Assembly (NCBI GenBank): GCA_951406725.2
Contig: OX597816.1
Span: 26,164,001 to 26,228,000 of the forward strand
DNA from: Octopus vulgaris
Taxonomy: Eukaryota
Direction: 5' to 3'
DNA length: 64,000 nucleotides
Both the position numbers and the translations under genes were made by a program. Positions 4,151 through 64,000 of this stretch are shown in pieces; positions within the stretch are counted from its first letter, which is position 1; every line of letters begins with the position of its first letter. Below the pieces are notes generated by a model. That model had not been told where the DNA came from, searched no databases, and saw nothing but the letters and a program-made list of their open reading frames with translations.

Positions 4151-5837
4151 TAAATAATTTGCTAATTTACATAAATCCGATTTCATTTTCGTTTTCAAGT
4201 GCAGTTGCTTAAGCTTTCATTCGCAAATCCGAAATTCGAAAGCATCTAATATTCGAAATTCTTTACACTGCGAGAAGGGCCACTAATGGAAAATTCTTGA
4301 AAAACTCGGAAAGGATTTCTAGAGTTAAAATAAGGTGTCTTGTCAGTGAGCATAAAGGAAAAAGTGTAAACTCAGAATGAGGTGAAGTGATTTAATATGC
4401 TTCACAATTTGATGCCGAAGCGAAACCAGACAAATTTGGTTTGATAAGAAACGAAACTGTTCGCAAGTAAAACGGTCACATTTGAGACAGTAGACTAACG
4501 AGTACAATCATATTCAATGTGCATATGTGTGTATACGTAGATACATATATATATACATAATGCACCCTTTATTCCTTCGGAATTAAGAATATGCAGTCTT
4601 CGAAACATATGTCGAAAATAAAGGAATTTTATTAAATCGTCGTTCGACTCCATTCTTTCATTTATCTATATACATACGTATATATATAATTATAGTTAAA
4701 TGGATAATGTGTTTAGACTGTATTCCGTTGTTAGAATATTTAGATGTCAGTTGGTTTCCATGATATGCGATATCTAATTACCATAAATTAAAGCCAACGA
4801 AAATTATCTGTAATTAATATAGACGTCTTTGTACACAGACTAGTGAACAATGACAGTTTATCCTCAGAGTTAGCAACCTCGATGACGAAACGATTATTAC
4901 CTTTCGTTAATTTGATGCACTTGAAAATTATACCAGTTATTTATGGATTTGAATAATCTGAGTATGGTCTGTTGCTTCGAAATACTCAACCTTCATCCTC
5001 AAATTAATTTAAAACAATTAATTCTTTATAGTTATTAGTATGCTTGAATACACACTGAACATAAACCAACCAGGTTAACCACAGGTTATATAAAGATTAT
5101 CAGGTTTACGAAGGTTTCTAATTGACAATAAGGACGATGTTACATAAGTCACCTGGGGCGTTGGAGCCTGGCACATACTAGAATGTCGTAGTGTGTTTGT
5201 CCTTTAATAACTATTCTGGCAACAGGTAGAATGATACTACTAAGGTTTAATTTGTCTCCTATGCATCAATATGTTTCGATAGTTGGTCGAAACACCACGG
5301 TTCGTCCAAGTTCTCTTCAACAGATGAATCGCGTTTTATAAACACACAACATCTAACGAGAAGACTTGATCTCCGATGGCGAAATACAACAGATAATCAG
5401 ATAATCACGAATGGATACATTTTGGTTGGATTCCCGTTATTCTGCGTGCATTTCTTTGCAGTTATCAACATGCATCTGGAAATAATTGCTGAAAAAGTAC
5501 CCAATAAATTCGAAACGGCGCAGCATCTCAGAGTTCCCTTACACCGGTGACTCACGTGTTATGAACAAACATCATGCAAAGGGATTAGATATTCTCCGAT
5601 GACGAAAGCCAACAACGATCAGCTATTTCTGGCTTGAGACCGCCATAATGTATTAAGGATGACTTGATGTGTTATTGTTTTACGACTTATGATATTTTCC
5701 TTGTTAGGAGCAGACGCACTCAGCTATGAACTCCCAAACAATCATTTCACTGCAATCAAAATGTCTTCATTAATATCCTTCCTTTATTAGCCAAACAAAC
5801 ATCAGTTTTGACCTGCTCAACATGTAATCTACTTATA

Positions 5838-6070
5838 TATTTCTTTACTACCCACAAGGGGCTAAACACAGAGAGGACAAACAAGGACAGACAAACGGAT
5901 TAAGTCGATTACATCGACCCCAGTGTGTAACTGATACTTAATTTATCGACCCCGAAAGGATGAAAGGCTAAGTCGACCTCGGTGGAATTTGAACTCAGCA
6001 CGTAACGGCAGACGAAATACCGCTAAGCATTTCACCCGGCGTGCTAACGTTTCTGCCAGTTCGCCGCCGT
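5838..6070 (-). mobile_element. SINE family D (Nin-domain-like core) with 16-bp TSD
   Basis: Core GCCTTTCATCCTTTCGGGGTCGATAAATTAAGTA resembles the Nin SINE domain; TSD ATGTAATCTACTTATA at 5822-5837 and 6074-6089. Confidence 0.88.
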
Positions 6071-7224
6071 CAAATGTAATCTACTTATAATAATTGAATC
6101 TTTCTTCCATACGATGTGATTCCTCATTTCTGGTACCGAGTGGTGGACTGAAAATGGTCGCATAATTATTTGTATTTATTCTCTTCCTCCGAAATACAAT
6201 TTGGTTAATTTTATTTGATAAGCTGCTTTATTTGACATAGTTTTCGTTCAGTCAAACAAAAACATTTGGTTTTGATGATTCTTTCCCTCTGGCACACCAT
6301 GAAGAGTAGACTCTTTCTACTCCTCACACTTTGCTTCATCATACGAACTCAATATATTATTTGGTCAACGACATTCTCAACGCCTTCTATCTGCCCGCCC
6401 CACCAAATAATAAATTCCAGTGTTTTTATGTGTACTAATTCTCTAAGTACGTGGTTTTCTTCGGCAAACATAAATATTCAACATGGCTATATTTTCGCTT
6501 TCATTCTTTTCATTGGGCTACTTCGTCGAGTTTCGAATATTATCCAACACGTTTTATTTCATTCATGATACGAATTTAATGCATATTTTCGTCAGCAAAA
6601 ACCATTTTCTTTTTGTATATGTCTGCTTTACTGGGCATAACTTCCACGCTGTCAAACTAGAATTTCCATATTAATGTTATTTTACTGTGATATTTTATTG
6701 ACTAAATTAGTCATCCGTTCGCGTCTTACGCCTTACATTCTTCGCTTCAAGTGGAGTGTGTGGGAATATGATTTGGCGAACACAGCCAAGATAGCGAAGA
6801 ATAAGGTCACATACTGGATCGAAGGTTAAGTTTGTGTGAGGGCAAGTACATAAAATGAACGTCCTTCCGTAGTTCTCAGAAAATACCCCGAAATAAATGA
6901 ACAAAAAATAAAATATTCAAAAATAAAGGCAGAAAAAACTCGGCTACTCGCATCTTAGGAAATGGGTAAGAAATGTGTAGGTGGGAGGAAGAGAGAGTGA
7001 GAGTATGAGGGAGACTAAATTGAATACATTTCTGGCGGATGTTGAATAAGAAGAAAAAGGTGGAGTATATTGCAAGCTGCAGGGGTTAAGTTTAACAAGG
7101 GTAACATCCTTTCCTATTTAATCGAGAGTGGTCATGAGGCTTATGATGATGACGGGATCGATAATGACATGCGATGCACCAACAGCGTCAGCGATGTCGG
7201 CAACGTCAACGACAACAAAGATAC

Positions 7225-62361: not shown

Positions 62362-63427
62362 TACTGTATTGGGGCCACTACTTTTTATAGTGGCCCGCTC
62401 AGGCATGCCCTCAAATGCCCGGATAGCCACTCTGGCAAGCTATGCAGACGAGCAGACGATACGAAAGTCTCGCAGAAAATACAGAACCCCAGCGATGTTA
62501 CACACCTGCAGCAGGAGTTGGACTCAGTCTTCAGATGGGCTGAGGATAATAATATGCAGTATAATGCTGAAAAATTCCAGGCCCTGCGCTACCAGCATCC
62601 AAAACTGAATATCAACTTCCAGGGTACACCTGTCCACAGGGAATTTCAATCCCAGAGCCTAAGTCTGTGAGGGACCTGGGTATTGACATGAGTGATGATA
62701 CCTCTTTCCAAGTGCACATTACCAGGATGGCGACAAAGTGCAGACGACTGGCTGGATGGATCCTAAGAACATTCAGAGCCAGAGATAAGGAAACTATGAT
62801 GGTCCTCTGGCGGACATTCGTCCTCAGCCGCCTGGATTACTGCTCACAGCTATGGTCACCCAACAGTGTGAAATTAACAACGGACCTTGAATCAATCCAG
62901 AGAAGATTCACAAAGATCGTCTCTTTGCAACAGCTCATCTACTGGGAAAGGTTGAAACAGCTAAGACTCTACTCCCTGGAGAGAAGACGGGAGAGGTATG
63001 CAGTAATATATGTCTGGAAGATCCTGGAAGGAATTGTGCCAAATTTAGTCATTGTAAGCTACACCGATGCTAGAACGGGACGACACTGCATAGTGCGAAA
63101 GATCCCAGCAATGCCATCACGCTTCAGCACCAGCTACTGCAACAGCCTGGGTTTCAAGTGCCCAAAGCTTTTTAATATCCTCTCAAAGAGTCTGAGGAAC
63201 TTGCACAAAGTAGATGTAGCGGTTTTTAAATCAAAGCTGGACATCTTCCTGTCGAGAGTCCCAGATGAACCTACCTCACGGCAAGAGGTGTAAATGAGGG
63301 TAGCTATATCAAACTCCATTCTTCATCAAGTGCCACATATTAGAGGAGGCTCTTAGTAATAACAGAATAGCACAAAACGGCGGTGCATCAAGCATGGCCG
63401 CATCTCTGAGCTGAAACAAAAAAAAAT
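62362..63427 (+). mobile_element. 5'-truncated CR1-clade LINE (RT C-terminal part and 3' UTR)
   Basis: TVLGPLLF, YAD(D)TK disrupted by an 8-bp duplication GCAGACGA, W..DNNMQYNAEK, RDLGI, LDYCSQLWSP, LESIQRRFTK, ERLKQLRLYSLERRRER; A-rich end. Confidence 0.92.
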
Positions 63428-64000
63428 ATATTATACATTGTTGATGTAGGAATAATTATGTCAAATATCGTAATTGGGTGGTGTCAGCTGTCTCGTCTGA
63501 CTAAAATGTAATTAAACAAATTGTTATGAAATATGAAATAGAGAAATTTCCGGGTCATGCTGCCCTAATGGGTGGATATTAACAAGTGAGCTGCCGACTG
63601 AAAATAAACTACGACAGAAGAGAAATAATAACGTTAAGTAAAATGAGCAAATATAAATGAAAAGTATATAAAATAAACACATGGATATATGATGAATACA
63701 GACTCGTACAAGCGCACACCAAAATGAATGAATAAATAGATAAAAAAGATGCATAAAAAATATATATAAAAATACTAAAATCAATAAATAAATAAATATA
63801 AAATAAATAAATAAATAAATAGATACATAAAGGAGAATCAAGGTTGTAGATGAATTCGGCCTGCATCTGGCAGCTTTAGCGCGGGTCGATTTCTCCGACA
63901 AACCGCATCACTCTGAATGACATTATCTGAAGAGGCCTCGACGCGGCTGGCTTCTTTTCTCGACTGGAGCCAGTAGGTCTTGGCCAAGGGAACAGTAAAC

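Follow-up and report, generated by a model that had tools for sequence, protein, structure and literature searches.

The stretch analysed here, referred to as the window, is 64 kb of the 2.80-Gb Octopus vulgaris assembly (GCA_951406725.2, contig OX597816.1, positions 26,164,001 to 26,228,000). It is AT-rich, with 174 rows of tandem repeats, mainly (TA)n, (TG)n, and (TATG)n, and it carries a set of type I hammerhead ribozymes. Our analysis supports the view that these hammerheads very probably lie in short 5′-truncated 3′ ends (pseudo-long terminal repeats, or pLTRs) of several autonomous families of Penelope-like elements (PLEs). The GIY-YIG endonuclease and reverse transcriptase (RT) of the elements likely inserted these ends into (TA)n tracts, copying RNA on which the ribozyme had likely not yet acted.

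A type I descriptor (CUGANGA, stem II, GAAA, stem III, UH, and stem I), scanned on both strands, recovers six motifs, against a mean of 0.07 and a maximum of 1 in 100 block-wise dinucleotide shuffles of the window. These are precisely the six that an earlier note, made from the letters alone, had called well-formed (C3 at 9887+, 43063−, 45130+, 46942−, 54924+, and 55487−); in each, the core (C3U4G5A6NG8A9 / G12A13A14 / A15.1-U16.1 / H17) is closed by stems I–III. Eight of the 11 sites listed there as degenerate are likewise family members or fragments: 17750, 28362, 46517, and 50256 belong to a family designated A, in which U6 is the usual core base (17750 and 50256 are damaged elsewhere as well); the A group also has damaged relatives at 43326 and 19745; and 4566 and 47103 are hammerheads that have lost the 5′ core. 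The other three are not hammerheads. The genomic sequence that follows the possible motif at 63927 has no GAAA past the hairpin, and the sites at 15556 and 28600 have no stem I in the copies' own upstream sequence and vary from G5 to A; the pairing at 15556 arises from an inversion junction. Motifs beyond the earlier list lie at 33089+ (also family A), 55688+, 32685−, and, as a pair, 20254+/19312−. The PLE-related features of the window are the following (C3 and H17 are core positions; aa, amino acids; ORF, open reading frame).

4560–4676, + strand: family I, hammerhead remnant that keeps the 3′ half but not the 5′ core, with the pLTR end of a Hydra-type lineage that has no Cys linker; 95% identity to the pLTR that follows an 804-aa ORF (L065)
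9537–10071, + strand: family F, inverted 5′ piece and pLTR with hammerhead (C3 9887, H17 9920), flanked by two TA tracts; 3354 genome candidates
17672–17871, + strand: older subfamily of family A, short pLTR copy; core with U6 and G5A
19109–19357, − strand: hammerhead truncated by loss of stem III and 3′ stem I; one of the two arms of an inverted duplication, 95% identical to 20209–20457; absent from the earlier list
19700–19904, + strand: damaged A-group relative (U4C, stem II mismatch, extra A) with (TA)n at its end; read from the sequence, the fold being unsupported and BLAST matching no family
20209–20457, + strand: second arm of the local inverted duplication (C3 20254); absent from the earlier list
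28297–28527, + strand: family A short pLTR copy, A6U hammerhead (C3 28366), TA on both sides
33089–33205, + strand: family A copy cut off within the hammerhead; absent from the earlier list
42960–43170, − strand: family B pLTR piece, hammerhead (C3 43063, H17 43024) with a 10.1/11.1 mismatch; 3484 genome candidates
43246–43430, − strand: A-group relative, CUGA core, damaged stem II and GAAA (C3 43355)
44121–44486, − strand: N-terminal fragment of a Hydra-type PLE ORF; 59% identical to residues 4–121 of a 778-aa ORF; 1542 genome candidates
45017–45245, + strand: family D, inverted tail (45017–45091) and pLTR end, hammerhead (C3 45130, H17 45208) with a long loop II, TA on both sides; 99% identical to young copies
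46440–46649, + strand: family A short pLTR copy, A6U hammerhead (C3 46520), TA on both sides; the best 39 other copies are 98–99% identical
46711–46950, − strand: family C, part of a ~441-nt unit, hammerhead (C3 46942, H17 46884) with a 7-bp stem I; looks retrozyme-like; fold z = −2.7
47007–47218, + strand: family B relative, 5′ hammerhead core lost, between TA tracts; 79% identical to 42967–43069
50242–50357, + strand: family A fragment, damaged stem II and GAAA, within a remnant of a long interspersed nuclear element (LINE), outside TA
54873–54990, + strand: A-group motif, the rare canonical A6 form (C3 54924, H17 54951), one of 204 such among 19,638
55293–55790: family E inverted pair, TA on both sides; − arm with an intact hammerhead (C3 55487, H17 55406), + arm (C3 55688) without GAAA and stem III; 2143 genome candidates

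The intervals 15405–15690 and 28566–28777, around two of the rejected sites, belong to a palindromic repeat family of 394 candidates, inverted in the manner of PLEs and ending in TA, in which no complete hammerhead is present. The inverted duplication at 19109–19357/20209–20457 is nearly unique in the genome, with merely three short matches elsewhere, these with a complete motif; it also doubles the flanking microsatellite block.

The association with (TA)n described in the earlier note holds: 12 of 14 cleavage sites lie less than 130 nt from (TA)4 or longer, compared with 31% of random positions within 120 nt. The site at 50256, 367 nt away, is the clear exception. All window copies are monomers or inverted (opposite-strand) pairs.

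On the scale of the genome, the strict descriptor was applied to 38 stretches of 10 kb (380 kb) over 24 large contigs and returned 23 motifs, compared with 0.4 in shuffles; seven of the 23 lie in one tandem array. The density is 60 per Mb (bootstrap 26–105), or 43 per Mb (22–68) without the array stretch, and extrapolation from these 380 kb gives a likely genome total of about 1.2–1.7 × 10^5 motifs within a wide range of 0.6–2.9 × 10^5. The set that had been described as dense is therefore so relative to chance and not relative to the genome: with six motifs observed and 2.8–3.9 expected (P = 0.06–0.20), the window is ordinary for its host and not significantly denser. Counts made with other descriptors are about 9,000 in Xenopus tropicalis (PMC4209133) and 126,247 in axolotl (PMC7229834). 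A title-level literature search found no genome-wide hammerhead count for octopus or any cephalopod. A 2026 repeat annotation of O. vulgaris reports a PLE expansion with 31 recently active families (PMC13282606), and neither "hammerhead" nor "ribozyme" occurs in the excerpted main text of that paper.

Family contexts were drawn from about 2 Mb of genomic sequence, including the loci given here as L plus a number. The 297 motif contexts fall into 59 sequence clusters, 24 of which have at least two members (part of the singletons are due to chance), bearing out the claim of several distinct families of PLE-type hammerheads. For four families, A, D, F, and I, longer copies place an ORF with RT and C-terminal GIY-YIG motifs upstream of the hammerhead end, as in endonuclease-bearing PLEs. 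The earlier note had suggested linking the flanks to such full PLE ORFs, and the link was found; its proposal of a radiation of solo pLTRs or retrozyme-like elements is not supported as an independent, non-autonomous one. Only family C among the window families looks retrozyme-like in sequence.

The most complete elements are of Hydra type. Twenty genomic regions, chosen among 150 scored matches to the ORF fragment at 44121–44486, gave ORFs of 778–908 aa in which the Hydra-clade features are seen (RW, DKT, CxxC, CxH, and, at the C terminus, a GIY-YIG-like domain). Loci L054, L055, L058, and L059 hold complete pLTR-ORF-pLTR and tandem units, every pLTR of which carries a hammerhead. The 778-, 899-, and 904-aa ORFs carry RW, DKT, and C-terminal CxxC and CxH, with no CCHH; alignment finds no CxCX5C linker in them, and this lineage, to which family I (4566) is joined through its likeness to the L065 pLTR, is filed as Hydra-like only. 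Of 38 hammerhead ends of the linker-less lineage, 26 run into TA at ~50–60 or ~195–220 nt, 11 continue into an ORF, and one does neither; 26 of 27 free ends thus meet TA, which weakens the proposed tie between the CxCX5C linker and TA targeting. Loci L051–L070 include young, intact Hydra-like ORFs of 778, 899, and 904–908 aa, and the hammerhead of the 778-aa family has a U4C core in L051 and L053.

Family D (45124) is joined at L209 to a Hydra ORF that does have the CxCX5C linker, as well as CxxC and CxH; this ORF is 5′-truncated. A Q/P-rich ORF of 292 aa lies just downstream of the family D pLTR (L209:6952–7827) and has a start that we take to be Myb/SANT-like. Families B (43020 and 47103) and E (55401) are probably also of Hydra type, judging from an inverted Hydra-type endonuclease remnant upstream of the former (L239/L367, E about 1e-5) and an inverted Hydra-type RT upstream of the latter (L279/L366). 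The longer copies of family F (9884) at L263 and L254 extend upstream into a broken RT and GIY-YIG-like ORF of a third type, presumably Nematis-like.

Family A is of Neptune type by its motifs. Three of eight long copies (L141, L145, and L147) have a pyrimidine-rich 3′ untranslated region and then an ORF with DKG, a CxxxxCxxC linker, and GIY-YIG; the Neptune marks present are DKG, the CX2-5CxxC linker, and a CCHH-type endonuclease. L147 was considered as a pLTR-ORF-pLTR unit and rejected, its upstream motif being a separate insertion. A second Neptune-type ORF (L144:4154–7749 and L372) is intact, at 775 aa, and is preceded by an overlapping upstream ORF of ~450 aa; the descriptor finds no canonical hammerhead in its 3′ end.

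The outlines of the copies show PLE hallmarks: pLTRs in tandem, inverted 5′-truncated partners, and a tail at one end. For family A, 30 copies were taken from 834 exact genome matches to a 3′ pattern; 27 of these copies, picked by their 3′ end, run directly into TATA. Twenty have their 5′ ends between −114 and −100, next to a TCAG word (19 of 29 once a duplicate is removed), and no copy starts at the cleavage site (0/30). This very strong 5′ hotspot accounts for the ~205-nt length of the short copies. A comparison of 43 short and 13 long copies, from which seven "incidental" ends were left out as older subfamilies that break the alignment, found the same majority base at each position from −98 to +99 and no fixed difference, pointing to common masters. 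The hotspot may be read as the 5′ end of a transcript, because the Penelope pLTR has an internal initiator-type promoter (PMC2377424); a splice acceptor or an RT pause would also be possible, and AT microhomology explains only the fine position of the ends. A similar hotspot at an initiator-like word in family E, seen in copies picked by likeness to the window copy, was gone in 30 copies picked by 3′ pattern, so family A is the one family for which we propose a hotspot.

Family D has two 3′ ends ~115 nt apart (13 short and 17 with the tail, among 30 hits), often one of each per inverted pair, and its 5′ ends are dispersed from −1494 to +1 relative to the cleavage site. The 5′ ends form truncation ladders. 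Solo long terminal repeats produced by recombination would be expected to have constant full-repeat ends; nested 5′ ends are seen, and that origin was rejected.

Most copies span the entire ribozyme, which suggests that the template RNA was not cut there. Genomic 5′ ends were also considered as a record of cleavage, with a result that is not significant in family E and null in families D and A. In family D, none of ~373 copies has a non-A base before the cleavage site (controls, 0 and 6). In family E, the cleavage site is preceded by a base other than A in 63 copies, compared with 38 at a control site; 19 of the 40 examined begin at the site, compared with 12 of 38 at the control (P = 0.17), or 17 of 39 compared with 9 of 36 (P = 0.14) after removal of one duplicate, a row that was misclassified, and three that reflect fold-back or deletion. 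Copies joined to an A, TA tracts included, escape this test, and microhomology confounds the family E excess, which is a weak lead only. At L491 and L492, related family E insertions, each of the two inverted arms starts precisely where cleavage is predicted.

To follow stem pairing, 96 copies of D/E type were collected through core and tail anchors, with no requirement that the stems pair. In stem I, pair 3 alternates between C-G and U-A and pair 4 between G-C and U-A, and in stem II pair 3 alternates between G-C and A-U; the Watson-Crick share is 0.919, compared with at most 0.755 in 1000 partner shuffles and 0.20–0.27 when the partners are slid. The covariation across genomic copies whose absence the earlier note had named as a refutation is present, in few independent lineages. 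Helix III is in most clusters a self-complementary word that differs by family; in the window it is short and self-complementary in five of the six motifs, and that at 9884 has a central A-A. A self-complementary helix III is a mark of dimer action (PMC4209133).

These observations can be assembled into a mechanism. In longer copies the hammerhead ends are joined to ORFs with RT and GIY-YIG motifs, and the copies end 3′ at one or two fixed sites, into TA, with variable 5′ ends and many inverted pairs. By analogy with in vitro work on another PLE, the element's protein would nick AT-rich DNA and reverse transcription would begin at internal RNA sites, early stops giving short copies. The family A hotspot, ~110 nt upstream of the cleavage site, would mark the point at which transcription from the pLTR promoter begins. 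The ribozymes may be selected in active masters as dimers, given self-complementary helix III and tandem transcripts, whereas lone copies would be mostly silent passengers.

Several points weigh against this account. The three long family A copies examined are all frameshifted, so that none of them has an intact ORF, and in no case does a pLTR immediately precede the ORF. Family C has no linked ORF in 29 loci, and families B and E have a weaker link, being joined to ORFs solely through an inverted neighbor at one locus each (for B, weakly). Pfam returned no families for seven PLE and LINE proteins (11 for a Tc1-like one), so the clade calls rest on motifs and not on a tree. The stem covariation represents two or three lineages and not 96 independent events; the promoter behind the family A hotspot is something we infer; some family E copies do start at the cleavage site, though not significantly in excess; and three of the six motifs fold as monomers no better than shuffles (z 0.67, 0.42, and −0.51), a result attributable to the weak helix III expected of such motifs.

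The alternative that survives best concerns family A alone. An exact 22-mer from the family A ribozyme has 19,638 genome matches, of which 17,224 are preceded by CUGU-N (A6U) and just 204 by the canonical CUGA-N; these pattern searches hold the flanking core constant by design. Family A thus has a variant core in which U6 is dominant, so that its "degenerate" sites carry the normal family core and the "well-formed" motif at 54920 is the rare form. Weaker cutting is the effect predicted for A6U: one or two hydrogen bonds are broken when A6 changes, activity is lowered, and a natural A6C variant is slow but active, with kobs < 0.1 per min (PMC3088659). No natural A6U hammerhead was found in literature listings, the PLE-variant survey of Lunse et al. 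2017 lying outside the comparison, and the CUGU core is absent from the two displayed of three matches in one supplement file of PMC4209133. It is a serious possibility, though one to which we give somewhat less than even weight, that the CUGU-N-GA core is a dead ribozyme derived from one mutated master and passively copied; these effects on activity agree with it, as does the finding that hammerheads are dispensable for PLE spread (PMC8557442, PMC11167929). Against a single dead master, position 7 shows all four bases in the first 100 of the 17,224 U6 matches, with U6 shared, and in 82 family A copies gathered with looser anchors stem II is paired in 79–82 of 82 at each position while loop II is variable. 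The variety at position 7 together with the kept stem II suggests selection on the fold across several masters.

A more ambitious proposal, which we put forward tentatively and with some doubt, is that the A6U core has been kept through several masters of this Neptune-type family as a tuned-down ribozyme gated by dimer formation or by protein. The genome would then bear one of the densest hammerhead loads known (~10^5, or 40–60 per Mb), attenuation would let more than 17,000 copies sit uncut in host transcripts, and short copies starting at the pLTR promoter would be a self-renewing source of transcript. The family A end is present in contigs of four runs guessed to be RNA, one of them bridging the cleavage site; such contigs reveal neither ends nor level. 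Contigs of three runs guessed to be RNA (X4, X5, and X9) depart from the family A reference (L129:1447) at one place upstream of the hotspot, at either a subfamily boundary or a splice junction.

It is unlikely, in our judgment, that the short elements propagate themselves as non-autonomous retroelements (non-LTR retrozymes, or pLTR units resembling short interspersed nuclear elements [SINEs]), using borrowed PLE proteins and starting from short or circular RNAs of their own. Family C (46877) fits best. Its upstream and downstream sequence is the same ~441-nt unit, arranged head to tail: one of 28 distinct other loci, L213, holds two motifs, 441 nt apart, and L167, L169, L172, and L178 cross the unit junction, so that it shows at least two tandem non-coding units with a hammerhead in each, as retrozymes do. 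A separate retrozyme-like array (L073:2278–4542/L215) has 359-nt units, seven identical canonical type I hammerheads, an internal inversion, and (TA)n flanks. The sharp 5′ boundary of the short family A copies would also suit such units, as would their being on average slightly nearer to other short copies than to long ones (43 short, 13 long). Families A, D, E, F, and I, however, are monomers, inverted pairs, or linked to ORFs, with A, D, F, and I continuing into ORFs; no diagnostic site divides short from long A copies; the family D 5′ ends are dispersed; and no window copy is in tandem. For these families, truncated ends of autonomous PLEs remain the preferred explanation.

Quite improbable is a further reading, in which the ribozymes of the dispersed copies are active and cleave host pre-mRNAs, some 10^5 potential cleavage sites shaping transcripts. 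Intact cores are certainly common (23 in 380 kb), several families could form monomers with a 2-bp helix III and a tetraloop like the axolotl motif that cleaved 22% in 1 h (PMC7229834), and family E has the 63 copies compared with 38 at the control site. Yet single minimal hammerheads (min-HHRs) did not cleave in vitro (PMC4209133), the PLE motif of Anolis depended on the protein of its element and was not a start or end point of any RNA-seq read (PMC11167929), and the cleavage-site starts are not significant and confounded by microhomology in family E and null in families D (0/~373) and A (0/30). On published kinetics, host pre-mRNA cleavage by single copies appears unlikely. Last, the idea that the motifs are chance matches in AT-rich repetitive DNA has in its favor that no hammerhead family matched the window at the Rfam gathering score (the best 150 of 604 rows of an E-value run held microRNA matches due to microsatellites and one tRNA), that half of the motifs fold weakly as monomers, and that three listed sites were false, but it is refuted by the shuffles (6 vs 0.07 in the window, 23 vs 0.4 in the sampled stretches) and by the fixed position in the pLTR, and compensatory stem changes also stand against it.

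For the role of hammerheads in PLEs, this genome offers dozens of families, some of them young and intact, with thousands of insertions recording the template RNA. That record indicates a template that was mostly uncut, in agreement with one in vitro study. The A6U core, a natural variant kept in over 17,000 copies, could be assayed at little cost, and the linker-less lineage targets TA without the zinc linker supposed to guide it.

Other sequence in the window includes a Tc1/mariner-type transposase fragment at 58229–58906 (Pfam HTH_Tnp_Tc3_2, E 6.5e-12), and two segments that we take to be C-terminal remnants of CR1/L2-type LINEs (62571–63293 and 49861–50249, the second containing the family A fragment). 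A tRNA-like sequence at 31157–31228 (Rfam 50.4 bits) has a mismatched acceptor stem and is either a pseudogene or a SINE head. A very abundant SINE-like family with an internal TA/TG tract has at least 10 window copies (1–233, 3657–4154, 7821–8266, 22799–23171, 26966–27385, 47948–48389, and others). The long inverted repeats at 55369–55788, 7225–7396, 15405–15690, and 28566–28777 would form double-stranded RNA if transcribed and, speculatively, could be editing substrates.

Hammerheads in PLEs, their abundance as single truncated copies, and their TA targeting have been published (PMC4209133, PMC8557442; related literature, PMC6765202 and PMC7151607). Since PLEs, hammerheads, TA repeats, and octopus are already linked in print, the value of the present data lies in scale and in testable details; those that merit follow-up, and that we did not find in the literature located, are the scale itself, the family A A6U core, the 5′ hotspot of its short copies, and the linker-less, TA-ending Hydra lineage. 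The PLE hammerheads of Cervera and de la Pena 2014 (PMC4209133) agree with those described here in type I topology, palindromic or absent helix III, an additional nucleotide that follows A9 in several of the families, the occurrence of many families in a genome, and a majority of single truncated-PLE copies. They differ in number (about 2,000–9,000 per genome, compared with an estimated 10^5 here, by different descriptors), in the 40–70-nt loops II of the Hydra-type families here, and in the A6U core fixed in family A.

PLEs of the Hydra clade, including Hydra-1_Obim of Octopus bimaculoides (Craig et al. 2021, PMC8557442), share with ours the C-terminal GIY-YIG, RW and DKT, CxxC and CxH around a conserved E and N, a canonical hammerhead, and (TA)n insertion; for Hydra-1_Obim the hammerhead and the (TA)n preference are given in the supplement, and the hammerhead listed belongs to no window family. 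Unlike the clade as described, the 778/899/904-aa lineage lacks the CxCX5C linker and still ends in TA. Family A resembles the Neptune clade (PMC8557442) in DKG, the CxxxxCxxC linker upstream of GIY-YIG, two Cys in the endonuclease core, later His residues, and microsatellite insertion, a placement made by motifs only, and differs in its A6U core and very strong 5′ hotspot. The non-LTR retrozymes (Cervera and de la Pena 2020, PMC7229834; Li et al. 2026, preprint 10.64898/2026.07.22.740005) are matched by family C and the L073 array, with non-coding tandem units of 441 and 359 nt and one type I hammerhead per unit, a likeness known here from DNA; the other window families are, in contrast, ends of coding elements. 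Poseidon PAc of Anolis (Frangieh et al. 2024, PMC11167929) offers the closest parallel in mechanism, with two internal reverse-transcription start sites (the tail signature), AT-rich targets, and an uncut RNA template, although the signature here is read from genomic copies and in other clades. The window holds a known kind of system in a PLE-rich genome, and its motifs were rightly recognized as real PLE-type hammerheads.

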